From the sequence record OM870969.1: a DNA stretch of 64,000 bases; one strand, written 5' to 3'. The notes beneath the pieces were generated by a model, which saw only the letters and a program-made list of their open reading frames with translations, did no database searches and was not told the DNA's origin. Positions within the stretch are counted from its first letter, which is position 1; the number at the start of each line of letters is the position of its first letter. A program made the translations under genes and the position numbers. This document shows positions 34,167 to 53,657 of the stretch, piece by piece. This DNA is from Pseudomonas phage vB_Paer_PsCh.

Positions 34167-34628
34167 ATGAAAGACAAGACTGTAGTTTATCGAATCGAGT
34201 GCAAGAACGGCGAGGGCCCTTATGTTAACGGGTGCATGACGAATTCGTCTTCCACTCCAGAGCGGCCTGTCCCTGAGCATGACGGGATACCAGATGTTCG
34301 CTATTTTGAGTTCTTCGCCTTCACGTCCCCTAGGCAGCTAGACGATTGGTTTGGCGATGAATACGATGTGCTGTCCTTCTATTCTACCGCACGGATCAGA
34401 GTCTATGAGGTAGACAAGCAACATGTAAGAGTCGGCATCCGGCAATGTGTATTCCGCAAGGCGGAAGCTGATTGCGTCCAAGAGGTGAGCATAGACCAAT
34501 GGGTTAGCATGGTACGCGCCGGACTATTGTCCGCCTCGGTCACACAAACTGTAGCTCCACGTCCTACCGAGCAATTGTCCCTAGACCTAGGGATGACTCG
34601 GCCTGCGAAGCTTCGAAAGAAATTTTGA
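34167..34628 (+). CDS. hypothetical protein (153 aa)
   Basis: RBS AAGGGACG. Confidence 0.45.
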   Translation: MKDKTVVYRIECKNGEGPYVNGCMTNSSSTPERPVPEHDGIPDVRYFEFFAFTSPRQLDDWFGDEYDVLSFYSTARIRVYEVDKQHVRVGIRQCVFRKAEADCVQEVSIDQWVSMVRAGLLSASVTQTVAPRPTEQLSLDLGMTRPAKLRKKF

Positions 34629-34647
34629 AAATGTTCGGTCTGTAGGG

Positions 34648-43474: not shown

Positions 43475-43845
43475 AGCATTTCCTCCCGGCTAATGTAGTA
43501 GTTGTAGTCGTCCTCTTGGACGAGGAACGCACGGTAGAAGCCTTTCTCAAAGTCTCCTTTCACTAGCACCAGATTGCCCTCCACCTTGCATGTATAGATA
43601 TACATGGTGTTTGCTACTCGGATAACAGGATCATCCCCGGGACGAACATCCAGAGCAGAGAGCATAGCCTCCATTGGCATGCTTGTCAAGTGTGCAACTA
43701 CAGCCGAACAGTATTCTGCATCGCGGCCAGAAGTGTCCTCTGCATAAGCAGGAGCGACCCCGCACGAATGCAGGGCGAGTGTAAACGCAATAGCTACGAG
43801 TTTCTTGAACATACTAACCCTCCTCTTGGTCTGTCTGGGGAACAT
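43471..43845 (-). CDS. putative lipoprotein (signal peptide plus lipobox LHSC)
   Basis: N-terminus MFKKLVAIAFTLALHSCGVAPAYA. Confidence 0.5.
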   Translation of the reverse strand: MFPRQTKRRVSMFKKLVAIAFTLALHSCGVAPAYAEDTSGRDAEYCSAVVAHLTSMPMEAMLSALDVRPGDDPVIRVANTMYIYTCKVEGNLVLVKGDFEKGFYRAFLVQEDDYNYYISREEML

Positions 43846-44317
43846 CCGGCTTGGGGTAGACGAATGTCTCTGGATACTTCATGCATCTTAGCTCATCTTT
43901 GCAGAACCCGTCAATCAATTTCTCATGTGCGAATTCCGCAGCCTTGTAGTAGCGATTAGCCTGTCTTGCCTCCACTCGAAGGAGGTGGCTTATCGTGTGA
44001 GCGTTGATATTACTAAGACTTGCAAAAATTGTCAAGAGCTTCTTTGCAGAAAGAGGGATCGACCTTTCGTCGGGTCTGTACCAATCCAGCCGGGCAACTC
44101 CTTGGAGAACGTCGTCCACCCACAGAGGGTAGTCTCCATCAAGCTCGACCATGACTTCGTACATTTCAGGCTGAACAGCGTTGAAAAAGAAAGAGGGCTT
44201 TCGCCCTCTGCTGGTATCAAGAGGAGGAACAAGCCCCCTCTCTACCTTGTGAATCAACCGGTCAGCGTTAGACCCTATACGGGCTTTTAGCTCTTCGATT
44301 TCTTCACATGTCAACAT
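43814..44317 (-). CDS. hypothetical protein (167 aa)
   Basis: ORF. Confidence 0.45.
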   Translation of the reverse strand: MLTCEEIEELKARIGSNADRLIHKVERGLVPPLDTSRGRKPSFFFNAVQPEMYEVMVELDGDYPLWVDDVLQGVARLDWYRPDERSIPLSAKKLLTIFASLSNINAHTISHLLRVEARQANRYYKAAEFAHEKLIDGFCKDELRCMKYPETFVYPKPDVPQTDQEEG

Positions 44318-44735
44318 ACGGAGGACACACCTTAGATTTCTCGATAGTGAATACCTCAGCGCATGTCAGGTTTGCAGGTCCGTACCATTTGAACATGTTG
44401 TTGATATCATACCGAATCAGTTGCCTGAACTTCTGACCATCACACATGTCTGCGTCGAACCAAGCAATAGCCCATCTAACGTGCTCTTCGGGGTCGTTCT
44501 CTTCTCGCCATCTGCACTCCAGATCAACGTGGCTGGGCTCTAGAACGTAAATGTCTTCGAACCCAGTGCTCTGGTTGTTCTTAAGTCGGATGATTCGAGC
44601 GCGAATCCATTGCATGCACCTGCGGTTTGGGTCTGTGATATCGCAGACTACCGGAACCTCTGGAACCTCAACTGTATACATGATTGTACCTCTATTTGTT
44701 TTACAAGAACGCCATGATTCTGTCTCTGTCTGCAT
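44304..44735 (-). CDS. hypothetical protein (143 aa)
   Basis: ORF. Confidence 0.45.
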   Translation of the reverse strand: MQTETESWRSCKTNRGTIMYTVEVPEVPVVCDITDPNRRCMQWIRARIIRLKNNQSTGFEDIYVLEPSHVDLECRWREENDPEEHVRWAIAWFDADMCDGQKFRQLIRYDINNMFKWYGPANLTCAEVFTIEKSKVCPPYVDM

Positions 44736-45282
44736 GGCGGTACAGATTGAAGCAAGGCACGCCTCTAGAGGACGCCAGTTGCCAAGCGGTCCTAGTCCCG
44801 CCTTCTGGAATCCCGTTGTGGTCTGTCTTGCTCCAGCACACCAAGAACTTGCTAGGCGTGTTGAGATCGATTCCCAGCACTTGGAAAACGTTCCGAGTGT
44901 GGGCTCGTCTTGCGAACGGGCTTAGAACGGACCTCCCGTCATTTCTGACAGAGTTCCAAGCCGGATGAATTTGACTGGCAATGCCTTTAGCTTCTTCCCA
45001 TTCAGCCGGCAACTCTTCCTCTGGCAGGATGGTAGCTCCGAGCGTCTCCGTTATCTGGTACTGGTTGAAGCCGGGAGACGGAAGATAGATTTCTGCCGTA
45101 GTCCCTCCTTTGTTATTGGATATATAATCCAGCCAGCCTGCCTCGAACGCTGAATCCGCTCCCTTCGCTCCTCCTGACCGAAGAATAAAACCTTGTTCTG
45201 CCAGTTTACGGCCTACCTCTCGAAGGATGCCCCATTCTCTGTTCGGAGTGTCCCTGCTTCCGACTCCTGTATAATATCTCAT
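44701..45282 (-). CDS. DprA/Smf-like Rossmann-fold (SLOG superfamily) protein
   Basis: Start moved to ATG 45282 (ATGA overlap with the upstream stop). Motif YTGVGSRDTP...ILRSGGAKGADSAFEAG resembles the DprA nucleotide-binding core. Confidence 0.5.
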   Translation of the reverse strand: MRYYTGVGSRDTPNREWGILREVGRKLAEQGFILRSGGAKGADSAFEAGWLDYISNNKGGTTAEIYLPSPGFNQYQITETLGATILPEEELPAEWEEAKGIASQIHPAWNSVRNDGRSVLSPFARRAHTRNVFQVLGIDLNTPSKFLVCWSKTDHNGIPEGGTRTAWQLASSRGVPCFNLYRHADRDRIMAFL

Positions 45283-45590
45283 CGTCTCACCATTTGTCCC
45301 AGTTCTCCGTATGTAATCCAGTGGTGACGATAATCCCCTTCTTGGTTGGTGTACTCCACTAACACCGGATAGAAGTTGTCTGCGTGGTCTATGTTTACCA
45401 CCTTGCATTCACATCCTCTGGGAATAGTGTATCCATCGCTGCTCATGGTTAAGAGCATTCCCCGGTACACGTCTTTTATCTCTAGCTCACCTTCTCCAGA
45501 CTCTTCAAACTTGAGTCTCAATTTCTCGATTATTTGAGCTTGCAAATAGAGAAGTTCGTACGCTGTTAAGTTGTCCAGATCAATAGACAT
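45279..45590 (-). CDS. hypothetical protein (103 aa)
   Basis: ORF. Confidence 0.45.
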   Translation of the reverse strand: MSIDLDNLTAYELLYLQAQIIEKLRLKFEESGEGELEIKDVYRGMLLTMSSDGYTIPRGCECKVVNIDHADNFYPVLVEYTNQEGDYRHHWITYGELGQMVRR

Positions 45591-45752
45591 GTCACTCTCT
45601 CCCTTCTAGTTTCTTGAATGCCTTGTCCAGTTTGGCTAGATGCTTATCCAACTTGTCTAGCTTTTTATCCTGATAAAGCTGGAACGCCTCCGAGCCCGGG
45701 GCCAACCAAGTCCCCTTATACTTAATTGCACCCCGGATCATATCTCCTCCTA

Positions 45753-46232
45753 TTACAGTTCGTAAACGTATACCTGAAACTGGCCGAGCGTCTCCTCGAT
45801 AAGAGGCTCGACATTGCTCCAGTCCTCTCCGGCTAAACCGCAGCCAATCTTCGGCAGACCTACACACAACTCCGAGGTAGGAATCGCCCGAGCGTCAGCC
45901 TCTGCCTCAAGGAACAGAGACATAGTGTACAGGGCTTGGCCCAGTGCGTCAAGCTGAGTGTAGACTCGTCCCTCTTCTCGGCCATAGTTGTACTGCCCGT
46001 ACAGATTGTAAATCGATCCATACTCGTTAATTGTGAAGGTGAGGGAGCCGAGTTTGCCTCGATCCCCTTTCACCGTTGCTTGGTCTGCCTCGTAGGCCTC
46101 CGGGAATTGCTCCCGGATTTGCTTAGCAATGCCGCTGCCCATGGTGTTGAAGCAATTAGCCTGATGTGCAATAGCGTGCAACTCTTTGTTTTTGAACGCG
46201 GCGAGCAGGTCGCCCTTTCGGTATTTAATCAT
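45753..46232 (-). CDS. macro-domain protein (ADP-ribose binding/processing)
   Basis: Motifs AIAHQANCFNTMGSGIAKQIREQFP and LPKIGCGLAGEDW match macro-domain signatures. Confidence 0.6.
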   Translation of the reverse strand: MIKYRKGDLLAAFKNKELHAIAHQANCFNTMGSGIAKQIREQFPEAYEADQATVKGDRGKLGSLTFTINEYGSIYNLYGQYNYGREEGRVYTQLDALGQALYTMSLFLEAEADARAIPTSELCVGLPKIGCGLAGEDWSNVEPLIEETLGQFQVYVYEL

Positions 46233-46426
46233 TTGAACCTCTCTACACTTGTGAATCTGACTTCAGAGCCTCTCGCTCCGTGAGCAATGTCCGCGTACAT
46301 TGAGTTAATGGCAGCAAACGGGGACCAATACTCCTTCTCCCAGATTTTGAACTTGAACATTTTGTGCCCTTTATTTTCTGGGCGACCTTGTTCGCAGAAG
46401 GTTGTAAAGTAATATTTAGCTAACAC
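46229..46426 (-). CDS. hypothetical protein (65 aa)
   Basis: ORF between the NAMPT-like and macro genes. Confidence 0.4.
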   Translation of the reverse strand: MLAKYYFTTFCEQGRPENKGHKMFKFKIWEKEYWSPFAAINSMYADIAHGARGSEVRFTSVERFK

Positions 46427-46437
46427 CTTTATCCTCC

Positions 46438-48126
46438 TTATACTCCGTTCTTAATCCGATAACGGATAGATGCCAAGTCATTGTTCTTCAGGTCTTCGGT
46501 GTCCCACTTCCCGTCTTTGAAGAACGTCCGCAAGGAACCAGTAGCCTCCTCCTCTTCAGATACATTATCTTTCAACTGGAGGAATCGCCCATTTTGCAGG
46601 TCTCGGTACACTTTCAGGAGGCCTTTAGCCGACTTCTTCTTGCTGTCAGTTTTCGGGTCTTTGAAGATTGCAATGCCTTCACCGTTCACTTCCGTGTAGG
46701 TAGCTTTCACTGCGAATCCGAAAGTATCCCGGGTGTTGCACTGGTAAGTGTAACTGCCAACTCCAAACACTACGTTCAGGGAAGCGAAACCTTTCTCCTT
46801 CAAGCGCTCCAAGATTTTAGCTGCTCGGCGAGTCGTAATGGAATCCCCATAGATCAAACCGATATGAGAATCGAGCATCTTATAACCTGCTTCATTCACA
46901 GTACCGCCGAAGGTTTCCCACAGAACTTGGATAGCTCCCTTCACCTGTGCCTCGCTCACTTCTTCGAGTTTATAGCCAACTACATACTCGTATTGGTCCC
47001 ATTCGGTGGGAATAACCTTGAAGTACTTATCTTCAAAGTTCAGAACAAAGGCGTCGTTTCCATTAACTGCATCCATGATATCCCAGTGTTCGAGAGATTC
47101 AACAACTTCAATATCGCCTAGTCCACAGATAACCTCTACAGGGTCACCAGAATCAGGGCGAACAACCAGCTTGCCATCCCGCTCCATGATCTGATCCTTG
47201 ATGGACGGCAGAATGTCAGTAAGCACGCCCCAGAAGTCGAAGCTGTCTGCCACGTACGACAGAATACCACTCGGGAACTTACCCATCAGTTCGACAAGGA
47301 ACCGACGTTCTGCTTCCTCACGGCCACCTTCACCTTCCCCATCATTCATTTCTTTCTCAATACGAAGGATGTTGCTAGTAGCTACAGCGTGTTCAGTCGC
47401 AGGTACGGAGCAAGCTACCAGACCAGTCGCGCTATAGTAGTCCTCGGCGTAGATAGCCGCTGCCAAGGTGTCCGAGCCTACGAACGAGGTCAAGTGACCA
47501 ACACCACTTCGGGCCGCGTCTTCAATCCCACTCATACCCCGGGCACTGAAGTCGTGAAACTGAACGGACAGCAGGAAGTCGTCGTAGCACCCAGTGTGGT
47601 TCGCGTAGTACCGGCCCATAGCTGCGTATTCTGCGGCAATGGTTGCGTTGGTTGCGGTCTTCCAAGTCATAGCCGAAATCAGGGTCTCATGGTAGTTCAC
47701 CAGCCAGTAGAACTCAGGCAGGGTATTCTTGATAGTGAGCACAGGCACGCCCATAGGAACGCTAACGCCCTCGGTCAAAGACTTAACCTCCAGAGGCAGA
47801 TAGCCGAGCTTGTGAAGGGCGCGAAGCTGCTCCACGGCTTCCATTTCCCGGCCAAAATAGCCAGTCAGGAACCGGGAATACCGGCCAACGGCGTTCTCTT
47901 CTTCAGCCGCGAAGAAGCCTTCCCAAGACTCTACGATCTCCATCCAAGCGGCCCGTCCGCCGACCCACTTTAGAGTGCCGTCGTAGAAGTCGGTGGCATG
48001 CGTCTTTCGATAAATCTTATCGGAGCGAGGGGTCAGGTTGCTATAGACAAGCTGAGTTCCTTCCGAGTACATGGAGCCGTGTCCAATCTTGTACCCATCA
48101 GTGGAAAGATGCGGCAGAATTTTCAT
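46438..48126 (-). CDS. nicotinamide phosphoribosyltransferase-like (NadV/NAMPT family; possibly Namat of an NARP1-type NAD reconstitution pathway)
   Basis: 562 aa. NAMPT-family character throughout (YSNLTPRS..., GYKLEEV, DSHIGLIYGDSIT). Immediately next to a PRPP-synthetase-like gene. Confidence 0.6.
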   Translation of the reverse strand: MKILPHLSTDGYKIGHGSMYSEGTQLVYSNLTPRSDKIYRKTHATDFYDGTLKWVGGRAAWMEIVESWEGFFAAEEENAVGRYSRFLTGYFGREMEAVEQLRALHKLGYLPLEVKSLTEGVSVPMGVPVLTIKNTLPEFYWLVNYHETLISAMTWKTATNATIAAEYAAMGRYYANHTGCYDDFLLSVQFHDFSARGMSGIEDAARSGVGHLTSFVGSDTLAAAIYAEDYYSATGLVACSVPATEHAVATSNILRIEKEMNDGEGEGGREEAERRFLVELMGKFPSGILSYVADSFDFWGVLTDILPSIKDQIMERDGKLVVRPDSGDPVEVICGLGDIEVVESLEHWDIMDAVNGNDAFVLNFEDKYFKVIPTEWDQYEYVVGYKLEEVSEAQVKGAIQVLWETFGGTVNEAGYKMLDSHIGLIYGDSITTRRAAKILERLKEKGFASLNVVFGVGSYTYQCNTRDTFGFAVKATYTEVNGEGIAIFKDPKTDSKKKSAKGLLKVYRDLQNGRFLQLKDNVSEEEEATGSLRTFFKDGKWDTEDLKNNDLASIRYRIKNGV

Positions 48127-48182
48127 GTTATTTCCTCCTGTTGTGTTGAATAGGCCCAGACTACATCAATCTGGGCCTCCTG

Positions 48183-48401
48183 TCAATATTCGACTTCTTC
48201 TACTGGCAGCGTCAGCACAGGGTAGATGCATGGAAGGCGCAGCAATGGTTGCTTCTTGCTGTGGAAGTCTTCCCAAAACTTATCGTGCATCGTCTTGTAC
48301 CGAGCGTCCAGTTCCTCCTTGGTGTCGAACTCCTCCACCTTGACAACCCTCTTCTCTGGAGCCGAACGCTTATACTCTACAATCCAGATACTCAAGCTCA
48401 C
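48183..48401 (-). CDS. hypothetical protein (72 aa)
   Basis: ORF between the Prs-like and NAMPT-like genes. Confidence 0.4.
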   Translation of the reverse strand: MSLSIWIVEYKRSAPEKRVVKVEEFDTKEELDARYKTMHDKFWEDFHSKKQPLLRLPCIYPVLTLPVEEVEY

Positions 48402-49264
48402 AGGCGTTCCGCCTTGGAGTATTCAACCGGAATGACAGTCAGCGCTTCGTGCTCTTTTTGAGGGAGCGTATCCGAGGTGTAGATGCATCCGAAGGAATCC
48501 AGCAAGCAGTCGATACCCTTACTGAAGATTCCATGAGTGACGAACAGGTCAGGGAGCACTTTACTGTACTCTCTTAGGGCCTTAGACACGCTTCGGAATG
48601 TAGCACCTCCGTCACAGATATCGTCGATCACCAGAAGCGGAAGTTCAGGATCGATATCCGAAGGATTCAGAATTTCAAAGCCTTCGATTTTACCGGTCTG
48701 GAGATCGCGCTTCTTATTGCAACGAATTACAGCGGCTGCTCCGGCCTTCTTTGCAAAATCCTCGGTCCGCTTTGTTGCTCCGATATCAGGGGCTACGAGT
48801 TGATATTGCTCCCACTCTGAACGGCTCAGTAGGCCACCGAAGACCGAAGATTGACGGACAACTTCGACGTTGTTAATCAGGTGCAGAGTTGCGTCGCTGT
48901 GAGGGTCCACAACGATAACTCGGTCATATCCGGCAGAGTTCAGCATGTTTGCAAACACTTTCAAACTGAAGGCGTCGCCCGGATTGCACCGACGGTCTTG
49001 GCGAGCATACGGGACATAACCCAGCAGAAGAGTCATGTGCGGATTAATCATTTCTGCTCGGATCGCCTCGGTGACGTTGAGAAGAGCCATGATATCATCA
49101 CTATTCTGAATCTGAGCTTTAACGTTTACGAACGCATGGCTTTCGATGCCGCCCACATTAACGCCCACTTCGCCGCCCGGGAACGTCCACACTTTTGCCT
49201 CTTGCCACGGACGGCTCATAACACCTTCCATTTCCTGAAGGCAACCTACAGCATAACTAATCAT
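48398..49264 (-). CDS. ribose-phosphate pyrophosphokinase-like (Prs family; possibly Adps of an NARP1-type pathway)
   Basis: Motifs LVAPDIGATKRT and DDICDGGATF (PRPP-binding). Confidence 0.65.
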   Translation of the reverse strand: MISYAVGCLQEMEGVMSRPWQEAKVWTFPGGEVGVNVGGIESHAFVNVKAQIQNSDDIMALLNVTEAIRAEMINPHMTLLLGYVPYARQDRRCNPGDAFSLKVFANMLNSAGYDRVIVVDPHSDATLHLINNVEVVRQSSVFGGLLSRSEWEQYQLVAPDIGATKRTEDFAKKAGAAAVIRCNKKRDLQTGKIEGFEILNPSDIDPELPLLVIDDICDGGATFRSVSKALREYSKVLPDLFVTHGIFSKGIDCLLDSFGCIYTSDTLPQKEHEALTVIPVEYSKAERL

Positions 49265-49273
49265 ACATCCTCC

Positions 49274-49690
49274 TCACAGTTTCACAGAGAAGCGATTCCG
49301 CATTGCTTCCATCGTGCTCTCGGGAACATCGTGTACAGACTTATTCCCATGACGATTCTCTACAATCAGAGAGATAACAGTGTAGCCAAACTCTTCAGCC
49401 ATGTCAATGTATGGTGCTACCTCTCGCTCCCGGGTACTAGTATTGGATACGATAACCGCATCTAGTCCTATCTCCATAGACCGTCGCGCTTTGTCCATGC
49501 ACTTTTTGTGAGATTCAACTACCCTCTCAGCTTTCCACACATACTTGCCGAACTCCATTTGGTAATCGTCCGCTTCGCAGATAGACGCCTGCCGGCCTGA
49601 CTCCCAAGTTTTGTTATACAGAATCTCGGCAAGAGAGGACTTCCCGGAGCCCGGGAGTCCTCGAATGATATACATGATCTTTTCTTGCAT
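49274..49690 (-). CDS. P-loop kinase (polynucleotide-kinase/AAA_33-like)
   Basis: Walker A GLPGSGKSSLA. 138 aa. Confidence 0.5.
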   Translation of the reverse strand: MQEKIMYIIRGLPGSGKSSLAEILYNKTWESGRQASICEADDYQMEFGKYVWKAERVVESHKKCMDKARRSMEIGLDAVIVSNTSTREREVAPYIDMAEEFGYTVISLIVENRHGNKSVHDVPESTMEAMRNRFSVKL

Positions 49691-49700
49691 ACTTCCTCCT

Positions 49701-50618
49701 TTAAATTCGAGCCATATCGAAGTAGGTTTCGATCAGAAGTCGTCGCTGTGCATCGGTCATTTCTGAGAACCGAGCCTCATCCACTTCATTTACCAAGAAG
49801 TCTACCAGAGGATAGAACTCTTCGTCAAGCGTCTGCTTGAATCCAGCCGGGTCTTGGTACATCGCATTGACCTTCTTACTACCCATCCTCATGATAAACT
49901 TCTTGCCGAGGTAGTGAGTCGACTTGCACTTCACTGTCCCTAGCCCTGTTTGTACCATGTAACCTTCTTTCTCACAAGAACTCAGAAGACCCTTTGCATG
50001 TTCCCAGCTACACTCTATGTGCTCTGGACGAAGAATCTTTACAGAACTGTGGTCCGTTACACCTAGGGCGTGAGAGTCAAGAATATATTCTGAAAGCTGG
50101 CCCCCAGTGAAGATATCGCGGATACCGATCAAATATGCCCCTTCTTCTTCCTCGACAATGTGAGGGTCGTCTGGAGAGCATATCTCGAAGTTATATGTGA
50201 AGCCTGCGATGTAATCATCTGGGTTATTCGACACATACTTCTGACCAAGGGCAACGTAATCGCTGGTCAATGACCCCGTAGTACTGAAGATAAGGGAGCC
50301 ATTGTGCTTAGTCACGGAGAACATGAATCCATTCACTTTCTCAATCAGCCGCACACGGAATTTAGGATGGAGGAAACTCCCAGCACCATTCTCTCCCAGA
50401 TTAAACACCTTCTCGAAGGGGCGTACAATACAATCACCGGAGTGCTGGTCAAATACATGACCCCGTGCCTCCAGAAGGAGCGGATGCTCATTCCACAGGT
50501 TCTCGTAGAACACCTTCCGGGCATACTTTATAATCGACATACCGTTGAAGTGCTTAACAGTCACCAGCTTATTAGCGATCAGGTCTTTGTACATTGCAAT
50601 GTTGAGATTACCTTCCAT
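49701..50618 (-). CDS. RNA ligase-like nucleotidyltransferase (Rnl2-like)
   Basis: Motif I EKVNGFMFS (KxNG), motif IV EGYMVQ, motif V VKCK. Confidence 0.5.
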   Translation of the reverse strand: MEGNLNIAMYKDLIANKLVTVKHFNGMSIIKYARKVFYENLWNEHPLLLEARGHVFDQHSGDCIVRPFEKVFNLGENGAGSFLHPKFRVRLIEKVNGFMFSVTKHNGSLIFSTTGSLTSDYVALGQKYVSNNPDDYIAGFTYNFEICSPDDPHIVEEEEGAYLIGIRDIFTGGQLSEYILDSHALGVTDHSSVKILRPEHIECSWEHAKGLLSSCEKEGYMVQTGLGTVKCKSTHYLGKKFIMRMGSKKVNAMYQDPAGFKQTLDEEFYPLVDFLVNEVDEARFSEMTDAQRRLLIETYFDMARI

Positions 50619-50629
50619 CCTACTTCTCC

Positions 50630-51037
50630 TTATTTCAATTCGACAATTGGGCAGAATTTAGCCTTCTTTGCCTTTAGATACGATACCAGAATCCCATCCT
50701 TGCTGGACGATTTACTCGACATAAAGCGAGAGAATCGGTAGAAAACCCACACGCCATAAAAGACGGCGATGATTCCAATCCATACAAACCCCATGACAGC
50801 CAGAGTCCCACCTAGAACATATCCGGTAAGTGGACCGAGAGCCAGAGAATACAATACAGAGCCTACAACAGCAGCGAGCGCTACAACCGTTAACGCCAGC
50901 CACACGACGAGGAATACTGTCTGCCAGAAATAAGAGCAGAGGGTTACAATTTGCCAACCGCTTGAGATAGCCGAATAGACCGGGGTCTCGAACGTACGAT
51001 GGAGCCGCATATGCCACGAATTCTTATCAATCTTCAT
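50630..51037 (-). CDS. membrane protein (3 TM)
   Basis: Hydrophobic helices throughout. Confidence 0.5.
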   Translation of the reverse strand: MKIDKNSWHMRLHRTFETPVYSAISSGWQIVTLCSYFWQTVFLVVWLALTVVALAAVVGSVLYSLALGPLTGYVLGGTLAVMGFVWIGIIAVFYGVWVFYRFSRFMSSKSSSKDGILVSYLKAKKAKFCPIVELK

Positions 51038-51309
51038 GCTTGTTCCTCCGGGAAGATGTTGAAGTTAAGTACGTTATGCTCTTCAAGTTCCATGGAGGCT
51101 ACCATCTTATAACCTCCGAGCTTGTGAACGATCTCCAGTATACTCTCAATAGAGAATTTGTCAACATGCTGCTTCATCAGATTGGAGATTCGGCTCTGAT
51201 GGGTTCCACACCGCTCTGCCACTTCCCGTTGAGTCAGCCCAGACTGAGTGATGTAGTGTGCAGCAACAACCATTACAGTTTTCTTGAAATCCTTGACCGG
51301 ATCATTCAT
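51034..51309 (-). CDS. helix-turn-helix (XRE-like) transcriptional regulator
   Basis: LTQREVAERCGTHQSRISNLMKQ matches an HTH pattern. Confidence 0.5.
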   Translation of the reverse strand: MNDPVKDFKKTVMVVAAHYITQSGLTQREVAERCGTHQSRISNLMKQHVDKFSIESILEIVHKLGGYKMVASMELEEHNVLNFNIFPEEQA

Positions 51310-51310
51310 G

Positions 51311-51547
51311 TTAGTCCTCCTTATTGCTCAGCGTTACTTTGCCATCGAATACTCGGAATTGAGCGATCTCAAACTGATCCGTCCAGCGGGCGTCCTCGAA
51401 AGCCACTCCTTCAAAAGTCCCGTCTTGTTTAACATCAGAAGTCATGAGGACGATAAAAGGAACTCCGTCGTCATGGATCAGTTCCACCAGAGTGTTAGCT
51501 TTAGGTTTAACATCCTCCTTGTCACGCGAAATCAACACATTGACCAT
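51311..51547 (-). CDS. hypothetical protein (78 aa)
   Basis: ORF. Confidence 0.4.
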   Translation of the reverse strand: MVNVLISRDKEDVKPKANTLVELIHDDGVPFIVLMTSDVKQDGTFEGVAFEDARWTDQFEIAQFRVFDGKVTLSNKED

Positions 51548-51559
51548 TCTTTCCTCCTT

Positions 51560-52114
51560 TTATTTATGGTGGTCTACAACCACAAACTCTTGCTCTCGCA
51601 TATATTCCCTCACTTCGTCGTAAGAGAATACCTGATGGTCCGGGTGATTGTCAATACCTACATCAAGCCGCTTACCCTTGGAAGGCAGGCTACCGTGAGT
51701 GTGACCATGCAGGTGCCAAGCGCCATGATGAGCGGTATTCCACGTCTCGAAAGGATAGTGGCACATGACGATCTTAACTCCGTCGATCCTCACTTCCTTG
51801 TAGTCTCGGATATCTTCGACGTGCGATAGGTTGCTGTCTTCAATCAGCTTCCACAGTCGGCTATCACAGTGATTACCCTTGAGGAAGGTGATCCGACCGT
51901 TCAACTGTCTAATGATATCCAGTACAGCTTGTAGCTTGTTCTTACCTGCAAAAGCGAAGTCGCCCAAGTGATACACTTCGTCAAAAAGACCGACCCGGGA
52001 GTTCCACCGAGAGATAAGCTCCTCGGTTTGCTCCTCGAAAGTCCACGGCCTGTTGCAGTATTCGATCACATTCTTATGGAAGAAGTGAAGATCGGAAGAG
52101 AAAAATACAGACAT
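51560..52114 (-). CDS. Ser/Thr protein phosphatase-like metallophosphoesterase
   Basis: Motifs GDFAFAG, GNHC, HGHTHG. Confidence 0.6.
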   Translation of the reverse strand: MSVFFSSDLHFFHKNVIEYCNRPWTFEEQTEELISRWNSRVGLFDEVYHLGDFAFAGKNKLQAVLDIIRQLNGRITFLKGNHCDSRLWKLIEDSNLSHVEDIRDYKEVRIDGVKIVMCHYPFETWNTAHHGAWHLHGHTHGSLPSKGKRLDVGIDNHPDHQVFSYDEVREYMREQEFVVVDHHK

Positions 52115-52545
52115 TATGCCTCCATTTCAAATTCGTAAATTTTGTTAATCCTGCGGATGAGTCGCATAGCGGCCCCTCCCAGCAGATGTTCACGCTCCGG
52201 TTCCATACTAGCCATGGCCTTGAACTCTGCTAACATATCTCGTCGCTCGTAGTGGAAGTCTACCACCCAATAATGGTCCGCATTGATCTTACCCTCTCGG
52301 TGCAGATGCCCTTCTACGCCTAGCCAGTGGTCTACCGCATCCTTATTCAAAAGCTCCTTCGGAGCCCACTTGTCTACACCTCGCAGCTTCTCGAAGAAAG
52401 AGTAAGGACGAGAATAGCTCATGATGGCTTCCTCTACGGCCGATTCAGCCTGCAATTTGATGAACTCCCATCTTGCAATAACTTCTTTAATCTCCCCAGT
52501 GGTGACTGGAGTGTAGCTATACTGCTCTTTATATTCATTCCACAT
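52114..52545 (-). CDS. hypothetical protein (143 aa)
   Basis: ORF. Confidence 0.45.
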   Translation of the reverse strand: MWNEYKEQYSYTPVTTGEIKEVIARWEFIKLQAESAVEEAIMSYSRPYSFFEKLRGVDKWAPKELLNKDAVDHWLGVEGHLHREGKINADHYWVVDFHYERRDMLAEFKAMASMEPEREHLLGGAAMRLIRRINKIYEFEMEA

Positions 52546-53095
52546 TATACTGTTCTCCTACATAGCCTTTGAATTTGTCGGAACGAGTTGTCTTCTTCCG
52601 TGCCTTGTTTTCCAGAACTGATGCTTCCCTTTCGAGCATGCTCAGTTGGTTGCTATACTTCTTGATCCGCTTCGAGTTACCACTCATCACAGAATTTGTA
52701 AGATTTGCGATAGTATCGCAGATTTTCACTTCTCTTGCAACCGGATGATTACGGCAAGCTTCGATATACTTACGGTAGCTCTCAGCACGGTTCTTATCGA
52801 GAATGACCAGAGCCTCTACGATGTGAGGCATCACGCCCATGGACTCCAAGTCTTCCTCTGTCAACTCTGTATCCTCCAGAACGTCGTGCAGGAAGCACAC
52901 AGCGAGAAGAGTGTCCATGTACGGAAGGTCGGAGAAAGCCTGACCCGGGTCCATATCTTTAGGAGCGTTGCGAGCCACGCAGACTGTATGCACCTGATTC
53001 AGATGGTAAGCATACGGGAAGTTGGTCTCTCCGTACCGCTGACCTTCGTGAGCCGAGAGTGCGATCTCAATAGCGATACCAAGCTGAGTGTTCAT
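52535..53095 (-). CDS. HD-domain (p)ppGpp hydrolase-like protein (SpoT/Mesh1-type)
   Basis: IALSAHEGQRYGETNFPYAYHL and CFLHDVLEDT match the RelA/SpoT hydrolase domain. Confidence 0.6.
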   Translation of the reverse strand: MNTQLGIAIEIALSAHEGQRYGETNFPYAYHLNQVHTVCVARNAPKDMDPGQAFSDLPYMDTLLAVCFLHDVLEDTELTEEDLESMGVMPHIVEALVILDKNRAESYRKYIEACRNHPVAREVKICDTIANLTNSVMSGNSKRIKKYSNQLSMLEREASVLENKARKKTTRSDKFKGYVGEQYNVE

Positions 53096-53096
53096 A

Positions 53097-53657
53097 TTAG
53101 TCTCCTTTGTAGAATGTGTGGTTGCCTATCTTGATTGTGCGCTTGTATTTCCTAGCCCACCGAGGAAGCTTGCCATTATTAGCCCGTCTCACCTTCCTCT
53201 CGTTGAGGTAGTGATCGGCTCCTCTCGTTGGATCGACAGTATACCCATATAGGGCGTTGTATGCAACATGTTTCGCTGCCTCCCACTTGTCAAGCTCCTT
53301 GACACCTTGCCGCATACTCCCATCGCAGGTGTAGGAATACTGGCACTTGAAGTAGAGCACTCCGGCTACTGTGCTCGGCCACCTGTCGTGCTTCATTCTG
53401 TTCACTACGGTGTGTGCTACAGCAATCTGACCGATCTCCGGTTCTCCCCGGGCCTCGAAGTATACAGCTTCAGCTAACAACCTGCAAGGCTTTCTGTACT
53501 CACACAAGGTGCGCTTGCTTTCTATGATTTGACCGGGGCTGGCTTGGAACTCTACTACAGGTTCTGTGCCGTATTTGAGACGAGAGTATTCCATATCTAG
53601 GAACATCCCAATAAAAGCTAGAAGGATCGACAAAACGAGAGCTTCTAAGGTTTCCAT
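53097..53657 (-). CDS. cell-wall hydrolase (SleB/Hydrolase_2-like) with N-terminal membrane anchor
   Basis: N-terminal TM followed by AHTVVNRMKHDRWPSTVAGVLYFKCQYSYTCDG. Confidence 0.5.
   Translation of the reverse strand: METLEALVLSILLAFIGMFLDMEYSRLKYGTEPVVEFQASPGQIIESKRTLCEYRKPCRLLAEAVYFEARGEPEIGQIAVAHTVVNRMKHDRWPSTVAGVLYFKCQYSYTCDGSMRQGVKELDKWEAAKHVAYNALYGYTVDPTRGADHYLNERKVRRANNGKLPRWARKYKRTIKIGNHTFYKGD

Follow-up and report, generated by a model that had tools for sequence, protein, structure and literature searches.

A probable NARP1-AP locus for NAD+ reconstitution in a Pakpunavirus, next to a SLOG-fold backbone gene

The NAD+ reconstitution pathway 1 (NARP1) of phages consists of an ADP-ribose (ADPR) pyrophosphate synthetase, Adps, and a nicotinamide ADPR transferase, Namat. 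An extended form, NARP1-AP, has been described in which Adps and Namat are joined by a Poa1p-like macro phosphatase termed Adpp (Osterman et al., January 2026 preprint, bioRxiv 10.64898/2026.01.28.702374). Here, we report the analysis of a stretch of 64,000 nucleotides from Pseudomonas phage vB_Paer_PsCh (OM870969.1; the whole stretch is called the window throughout), in which genes for a Prs-like protein, a NAMPT-like protein, a macro domain protein and a DprA-like protein with a SLOG fold are located close together. We conclude that this region very probably encodes NARP1-AP. This reading is based on the presence of the genes, their homology, the conservation of essential residues, the gene context, and the failure to find a nicotinamide mononucleotide (NMN) adenylyltransferase (NMNAT), while the chemistry of the enzymes is extrapolated from published homologs that share 37-41% identity with them.

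Several properties of the published systems are relevant for this comparison. Within the published Adps clade, 97% of the members adjoin a Namat gene. A Poa1p-like macro gene (PF01661, PF14519 or PF20016) is found within two genes in 15% of NARP1 operons (10.64898/2026.01.28.702374). According to the same preprint, the RES-domain NADases of aRES systems turn NAD+ into ADPR-1''-phosphate, a product that plain NARP1 cannot use, and purified Adpp from Vibrio phage Gary converts ADPR-1''-phosphate to ADPR. The three-gene operon of Gary alone overcomes aRES and Nezha, and mutation of Adps K192, Namat H243, or Adpp H24 or N27 abolishes function; both the anti-aRES phenotype and the ADPR-1''-phosphate phosphatase activity have been demonstrated for phage Gary only. 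Furthermore, the preprint's list of putative aRES systems covers Pseudomonas, with genomes of P. aeruginosa among them, and its Table S1 contains the phages JG004, PAK_P1, PAK_P2, PAK_P4, PaP1, and C2-10_Ab1 with their macro sequences. A different neighbor of NARP1, RyDEP of mycobacteriophage DyoEdafos, converts 2'cADPR or 3'cADPR (cADPR, cyclic ADPR) to ADPR that feeds NARP1 (10.64898/2026.05.28.727677).

The source phage belongs to the genus Pakpunavirus, i.e., it is a PAK_P1-like P. aeruginosa myovirus, with a genome size of about 92 kb for the genus. Over the 6.7 kb around the locus, the identity to Pseudomonas phages 37F and PT07 is 99.9%, and 123 of the 128 matching phage records are Pseudomonas phages of this genus. 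Phage Adele, a close relative with a complete genome, shares 98.8% identity with the window in the locus; its annotation names the central pair "ADP-ribose pyrophosphate synthetase" and "nicotinamide ADP-ribosyltransferase" and the neighbors "macro domain-containing protein" and "DprA-like DNA recombination-mediator protein". That these phages carry NARP1, that a macro gene extends it, and that SLOG and Macro are generally linked to ADPR in phages has all been published or entered in GenBank annotation before.

All four genes that had been singled out in an initial annotation, made from the letters of this DNA alone, were recovered on the minus strand with unchanged coordinates (Table 1). That annotation had also described the central pair as adjacent and the macro and SLOG genes as immediately downstream in the same operon. 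The four genes are co-directional, with several 4-nt overlaps, but small open reading frames (ORFs) are interleaved, so that they are not strictly contiguous: a 72-aa ORF lies between the Adps and Namat genes, a 65-aa ORF between the Namat and macro genes, and a 49-aa and a 103-aa ORF between the macro and SLOG genes. A promoter and terminator scan, which was not discriminating, gave no convincing terminator between the genes of the locus. Since the whole early arm of about 20 kb is co-directional and tightly packed, sharing an operon is not specific to these genes.

Table 1. Features of the NARP1-AP region and related genes in the window.
Feature	Coordinates	Strand	Size	Remarks
ADP-ribosyltransferase (ART)-fold protein	34167-34642	+		Homolog of Adele "ADP-ribosyltransferase fold protein"
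Stand-alone SLOG-fold protein, annotated "DprA-like"	44701..45282	-		Backbone gene at the edge of the accessory insert
Accessory block	45283..53096	-	~7.8 kb	Between lytic transglycosylase (53097-53657) and SLOG gene; missing in KPP10 locus fetched
103-aa ORF	45279..45590	-	103 aa	Directly upstream of SLOG gene; phrog_8023 match; hypervariable
49-aa ORF	45592..45741	-	49 aa	Adele PaAdele_019; kept in 16 loci sharing synteny; no Pfam match
Adpp candidate, Poa1p-like macro domain	45753..46232	-	159 aa	Putative ADPR-1''-phosphate phosphatase
65-aa ORF	46229..46426	-	65 aa	phrog_6997 match, no Pfam match; Pakpunavirus loci only
Predicted Namat, nicotinamide ADP-ribose transferase	46438..48126	-	562 aa	NAMPT homolog; second enzyme of NARP1
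72-aa ORF	48183..48401	-	72 aa	phrog_7663 match, no Pfam match; Pakpunavirus loci only
Predicted Adps, ADP-ribose pyrophosphate synthetase	48398..49264	-	288 aa	Divergent Prs homolog; first enzyme of NARP1
P-loop kinase, AAA_33, polynucleotide-kinase-like	49274..49690	-		AAA_33 4.8e-8; phrog_505 "polynucleotide kinase"
T4 Rnl1-family RNA ligase	49701..50618	-		RNA_lig_T4_1 2.1e-9
Calcineurin-type metallophosphoesterase	51560..52114	-		Candidate RNA end-healing phosphatase; Metallophos_2 9.6e-8
Small alarmone hydrolase (Adele annotation)	52535-53095			In accessory block

The Prs-like protein matches Pribosyltran_N (9.6e-9) and phrog_619 (6.6e-96). With 116 bits, it barely exceeds the 113-bit cut-off of TIGR01251, and for all equivalog-level Prs models returned in the profile search, its score falls far short of the cut-off. 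Its identity to Gary Adps is 37% (125 bits), compared to 28% (67 bits) for E. coli Prs, and K184 aligns with the essential K192 of Gary, which is the equivalent of K197 in Prs of B. subtilis. The Namat gene follows on the same strand after a gap of 271 bp, which holds the 72-aa ORF. Assignment to the Adps clade was made by similarity scores and through near-identical phages in the published NARP1 list. Far nearer to validated Adps than to canonical Prs, the predicted protein is, by these measures, an Adps.

Similarly, the NAMPT-like gene is, as judged from its product, a Namat, being far nearer to validated Namat than to canonical NAMPT. The protein matches NAPRTase (1.3e-37) and NF006629 (465 bits); the match to the SpbetaL1 Namat structures 9W5X and 9W5W (PMC12774641) reaches 1.8e-111, compared to 2.3e-48 for human NAMPT. 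Gary Namat shares 41% identity with it, and the essential H243 of Gary aligns with H246 in the window. The helix that forms the selectivity clamp of Namat has the consensus GS-X-phi-X-phi-X-phi-TRD, with aromatic residues for X at positions 3 and 7. In the window, this helix reads GSYTYQCNTRD, i.e., 10 of the 11 positions are of the Namat type, with Tyr at position 3 and Cys at position 7; the corresponding motif in the Nampt-type gene of a T4-like Klebsiella phage is GGGLLQEVTRD. The Cys is kept across the Pakpunavirus and Otagovirus clade, while in the remaining Namat proteins this position is Tyr, except for Met in a single related locus (L041). It was also observed that residues ~337-391 form an insert of about 55 residues that is missing in SpbetaL1 Namat, whereas Gary Namat aligns through it.

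For the macro protein, the score with the Macro model PF01661 (22.2 bits) is just at the gathering cut-off of 22 bits, while phrog_335, described as "phosphatase", matches with 1.4e-60. The similarity to purified Gary Adpp is considerable (41% identity, E = 6e-32), and H23 and N26 align with H24 and N27, the residues mutated in Gary, both of which are also present in yeast Poa1p. All four residues that are experimentally essential in Gary are therefore identical in the window (Adps K184, Namat H246, Adpp H23 and N26). The macro gene is the second gene downstream of Namat and, thus, within the two genes used to define NARP1-AP. The gene positions in Table S1 of the preprint (Adps n, Namat n-2, macro n-4) reproduce the order in the window, and the listed macro sequences of JG004 and PAK_P2 are each one residue apart from the macro protein analyzed here.

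An NMNAT was missing from the initial annotation of the window, and this was borne out by tblastn: with NadR and NadD of E. coli as queries, neither the window nor the complete Adele genome gave an E-value better than 0.75. Moreover, the full annotation of Adele contains no NMNAT or Nudix gene, and no NMNAT or Nudix Pfam match was obtained for the 19 "hypothetical" Adele proteins of at least 140 aa and the ART-fold protein. The proposal that the Prs-like and NAMPT-like genes constitute the two-enzyme NARP1 was supported by the sequence-level tests that were run, with the clamp motif of Namat as an ambiguous case owing to its Cys at position 7. The association with the macro gene, in turn, had been considered unaccountable from known pathways; this assessment is outdated, as the association has been published as NARP1-AP. 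With nearly identical Pakpunavirus macro proteins listed in Table S1 of that preprint, the substrate of the macro protein would be a non-canonical NAD+ breakdown product rather than a cADPR-type signal.

The following sequence of reactions can be proposed. Canonical host NADases of the TIR, SIR2, and SEFIR types would yield ADPR directly, while aRES would yield ADPR-1''-phosphate, from which Adpp would strip the 1''-phosphate to give ADPR. Adps would then convert ADPR and ATP to ADPR-PP, and Namat would combine ADPR-PP with nicotinamide to form NAD+, so that no NMNAT would be needed. For phage therapy, Pakpunaviruses are among the candidates (e.g., PAK_P1, PaP1, and JG004), and NARP1-AP should allow them to escape from Thoeris I, DSR, SIR2-HerA, and pAgo, as well as from aRES by means of Adpp, in clinical P. 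aeruginosa. The practical value of the finding lies in this bearing on host range.

The initial annotation had further suggested that the macro and SLOG proteins may extend the NARP1 module. For the macro protein, this is in line with its predicted role as Adpp in NARP1-AP, whereas the SLOG protein is, from the genomic comparisons, a conserved backbone gene that is kept without NARP1 and is not a required component of it. The related Nankokuvirus KPP10 has a SLOG homolog without NARP1 genes in the locus fetched. In Gary, the SLOG homolog (gp58, 33% identity) is located 55 kb from NARP1-AP. Host genera differ as well: Adps is common in phages of Staphylococcus, Mycobacterium, Bacillus, and Listeria, which are missing from the top of the SLOG list, while SLOG is commonest in Klebsiella phages. 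It is the KPP10 synteny, the distance in Gary together with the sufficiency of the Gary operon, and the differing host genera that argue against the SLOG gene being a NARP1 component.

Neighborhoods of SLOG genes were analyzed in 80 IMG/VR loci, which at 70% identity fall into 49 clusters. Of these, 11 have a NAMPT-family gene within 10 kb, representing about six independent arrangements, and in 7 the distance is no more than 4 kb. A macro gene was found within 10 kb in 7 clusters. Examples are the orders RNA ligase, Band_7, Adps, Namat, x, SLOG (L037) and SLOG, CCA-adding-type enzyme, AAA_28, Adps, Namat, Band_7 (L054), as well as a T4-like Klebsiella phage with RNA ligase, SLOG, and, a few genes further, the Nampt-type gene. 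While the co-occurrence of SLOG and NAMPT exceeds a rough random expectation of 3-7%, it is not convincing as evidence of linkage, since this expectation is no proper null model for two genes that are both located in early or accessory regions. In the two unrelated metagenomic phage loci just mentioned, SPFH/Band_7 proteins are encoded directly beside Adps and Namat (L037 6028-6879, L054 12864-14741), and in L054, a CCA-adding-type nucleotidyltransferase with a PolyA_pol head domain and an AAA_28 P-loop protein precede NARP1.

With respect to its function, the SLOG protein shows a weak match to the DprA profile, and no solved structure close to it in sequence was found. An AlphaFold model built from 62 homologs is confident (pLDDT 94.7) and has a true SLOG fold. 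The family comprises 1,475 phage records and 5,919 representative clusters, nearly all of them stand-alone proteins of about 190 aa. The view that the protein is a true DprA-type single-stranded DNA binder, serving as recombination mediator in phage replication or recombination and unrelated to NAD+, can be regarded as possible, yet rather unlikely. It is in agreement with the DprA-like motifs GSR and SGxAxGxD and with the genomic context, as the gene lies in the replication module of Gary and Bennett and adjoins DNA ligase and helicase genes in KPP10. However, 20 multi-domain proteins among the top 150 profile hits included 4 fusions to NADAR and 3 to DUF4326, so that all 7 identifiable partners are ADPR-linked and none is a nuclease or helicase. 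Furthermore, a family-specific insert contains the invariant residues H106, H128, R130, N131, and Q134, which suggest catalysis. The charge is near-neutral, with a family median isoelectric point of 7.65 and 37% of members acidic, although this test was judged uninformative. The SLOG protein is, therefore, probably not a DNA recombination mediator, and its role is most likely the binding or processing of some ADPR- or NAD-derived molecule.

This prediction is in line with the survey by Iyer et al. 2022 (PMC9503650), which reported co-occurrence, fusions, and neighborhoods of SLOG, Macro, and NADAR in phages and put forward the sensing or cleavage of cADPR-type molecules as a hypothetical function of SLOG domains in viruses. 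The NADAR and DUF4326 fusions found here support the hypothesis that SLOG proteins handle ADPR derivatives. The earlier idea that the SLOG protein processes ADPR-derived signals is thus reasonable, while its membership in NARP1 is not supported. More specifically, the protein could neutralize, as an enzyme or as a sponge, an immune signal derived from ADPR or a NAD+ breakdown product of a non-canonical kind, e.g., a cADPR isomer, His-ADPR, or ADPR>P, perhaps releasing ADPR and thereby acting as a further feeder or partner of NARP1-AP in the manner of RyDEP and Adpp, but we consider this unlikely. If true, no viral SLOG protein before it would have had a defined anti-defense function. In any case, a family present in about 1,500 phage genomes is routinely annotated as "DprA-like recombination mediator", while its fusion partners point to ADPR chemistry.

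Further observations concern the SLOG family in other phages. In Thalassavirus phages, the SLOG gene lies between two genes for NAD-dependent DNA ligase subunits (Gary L095 5282-8141, Bennett L006 3342-6461). Two giant proteins of about 1,480 aa (P0121 and P0124) carry, besides a domain of this SLOG family, other domains of SLOG type (YAcAr, LDcluster4) and have NADAR at the C terminus. A role as a mimic of the ShosA antitoxin against ShosTA was considered and dropped, as the structural similarity to ShosA is no better than that to DprA; the main ShosTA paper makes no mention of phage-encoded DprA-like proteins. Likewise, an apparent fusion of SLOG to a "nicotinamide-nucleotide adenylyltransferase" in Mydovirus was rejected, since the ORFs reveal a stand-alone SLOG gene of 212 aa. 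In the Mydovirus Klebsiella phage K54lambda1.1.1, the annotated coding sequence (L002 7001-8261) spans the SLOG ORF and two more and is flagged as a pseudogene; because it covers several ORFs, the "NMNAT" is regarded as a likely annotation artifact. A PnuC-like gene is located about 3 kb downstream of this coding sequence.

Several points weigh against the assignment of the region to NARP1-AP. The identity to the validated enzymes is just 37-41%, and a literature search found no biochemistry or genetics on any NARP1 protein of a Pakpunavirus. Position 7 of the Namat clamp is occupied by Cys and not by an aromatic residue that stacks on adenine, as Y396 does in SpbetaL1 Namat, and Namat enzymes also form NMN from phosphoribosyl pyrophosphate (PRPP) in vitro (PMC12774641). 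In addition, homologs of the macro protein occur in 2,972 phage records, about 1,000 of them from Escherichia phages and many without Adps, whereas Adps occurs in 1,569 phage records, including 178 from Escherichia phages. This spread far beyond NARP1 implies that the macro family also works outside the pathway. Finally, the best solved relative of the macro protein is PDB 5e3b (1.2e-10), deposited only as "Macrodomain protein", and Poa1p follows with 3.2e-6. We take 5e3b to be SCO6735, a protein de-ADP-ribosylase from Streptomyces.

The latter two points would also fit a macro protein whose main activity is the removal of ADP-ribose from protein, DNA, or RNA, and whose adjacency to NARP1 reflects a shared location rather than a pathway. 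Such an enzyme might reverse DNA ADP-ribosylation of the DarT type or tune the phage's own ART-fold protein. A weak match to the DarG macro model (6.3e-13, far below the cut-off) and the presence of the ART-fold gene itself agree with this; the phage may thus ADP-ribosylate targets by itself, which would provide a possible second role for the macro protein. Nevertheless, a primary function of this kind appears improbable, given the 41% identity to an enzyme proven to convert ADPR-1''-phosphate to ADPR, the retention of the functional residues, and a distance to Namat of no more than two genes, which is the arrangement by which 15% of NARP1 operons were defined as NARP1-AP. Also, the positions of the catalytic Lys and Asp of TARG1 are presumably Gln and Ala in both the macro protein and Gary Adpp. 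A classical nicotinamide salvage, i.e., an auxiliary metabolic boost rather than a rebuilding of NAD+ from ADPR, in which the Prs homolog makes PRPP, the NAMPT homolog makes NMN, and host NadD, PncC plus NadE, or a NadR-type enzyme finish the route, would suit the Prs and NAMPT superfamily membership of the proteins, the NMN-forming activity kept by Namat, and the Cys at the usual position of the adenine-stacking Tyr, but it is highly improbable in view of the similarity to validated Adps and Namat, which far exceeds that to the canonical enzymes, the 10 clamp positions of the Namat type, the function of Bas63 NARP1 in E. coli without pncC and nadR, and the coverage of these phages by the published NARP1 survey.

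Apart from the genes of NARP1-AP, the small ORFs and the genes further upstream were inspected. As conserved partners of NARP1, the small ORFs were rejected, with the 72-, 65-, and 103-aa ORFs being confined to Pakpunaviruses; a RyDEP-type feeder was likewise not found among the small ORFs around NARP1, which gave no RyR or other Pfam match at E-values up to 1. At the position of the 103-aa ORF, the identity to other Pakpunavirus alleles drops to 37-39%, compared to 90-100% for the flanking genes; in several Pakpunavirus loci (L010-L013) that are otherwise 90-98% identical, the ORF is swapped for such an allele.

The accessory block contains the small alarmone hydrolase, an RNA-repair trio (RNA ligase, P-loop kinase, and metallophosphoesterase), NARP1-AP, and small ORFs. 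KPP10 encodes homologs of the genes at 59798-53097 of the window, followed by one 82-aa ORF, the SLOG homolog, and a homolog of 43814-44317; the syntenic backbone genes include dCMP deaminase, DNA ligase, and lytic transglycosylase, and no homologs of the genes at 45283-53096 were found in the KPP10 locus fetched. As synteny is preserved in KPP10 without the block, the SLOG gene flanks an accessory insert of about 7.8 kb. This block looks like an anti-defense island, in which the alarmone hydrolase may be another counter-defense gene.

A counterpart of the RNA-repair genes is also found in Gary. The RNA ligase is 39% identical to gp176, which is encoded 2 kb upstream of Gary Adps, the P-loop kinase is 43% identical to the product of a gene adjoining the Gary RNA ligase, and the metallophosphoesterase is 44% identical to gp178. 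Thus, six genes (Rnl1 ligase, P-loop kinase, metallophosphoesterase, Adps, Adpp, and Namat) form a set that is also present in Gary, there within about 6 kb (L089 4397-10499), with 37-44% identity between a Pseudomonas myovirus and a T5-like Vibrio siphovirus of an unrelated phage family. This recurrence suggests that RNA repair and NAD+ reconstitution travel, or are selected, together.

Finally, the locus can be placed among the known systems. The SLOG protein shares the Rossmannoid SLOG fold, the occurrence in medium and large phages, and the NADAR and DUF4326 fusions with viral stand-alone SLOG proteins (PMC9503650). DprA, ShosA, the SLOG domain of ThsA, and LOG are structural relatives, but DprA/Smf proteins combine the Rossmann domain with SAM and/or winged-helix domains, which the window protein lacks, and LOG N-glycosidases carry GGGxGxMG and PGGxGTxxE motifs with catalytic Arg and Glu, whereas PGGxGTxxE is missing here. 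NARP2, as described for Vibrio phage KVP40 (Nampt plus a bifunctional Nmnat/Nudix protein), also uses a NAMPT-family enzyme to counter NAD+ depletion. It has no Adps, uses PRPP, and needs an NMNAT, while the window encodes an Adps and a clamp of the Namat type, and no NMNAT was found. From yeast Poa1p (ADPR 1''-phosphate phosphatase, PDB 6LFQ), which belongs to the same macro subclass with His and Asn of HxxN kept, the phage enzyme differs in its proposed role, since Poa1p clears a by-product of tRNA splicing and the phage enzyme would feed a defense-made fragment into NARP1. RyDEP of DyoEdafos provides a precedent for such a NARP1 neighbor that turns another ADPR derivative into ADPR.

The closest similarities are to NARP1 itself. 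As in Bas63 and SpbetaL1 (Osterman et al. 2024, bioRxiv 10.1101/2024.02.11.579819), Adps and Namat occur without an NMNAT, while the macro phosphatase is an addition in the window and the Namat insert sets it apart from SpbetaL1. With NARP1-AP of Gary, the locus shares all three enzyme families, Adps with 37% and Adpp and Namat with 41% identity each, as well as the linked RNA ligase, P-loop kinase, and metallophosphoesterase (39-44% identity). Compared to Gary, where the order is Adps, macro, Namat, the order in the window is Adps, x, Namat, x, macro, with small lineage-specific ORFs interleaved, Cys-7 in the Namat clamp, and a Pseudomonas host; the locus described here is known from its genes, and by these it most closely resembles a NARP1-AP of the kind established in Gary.

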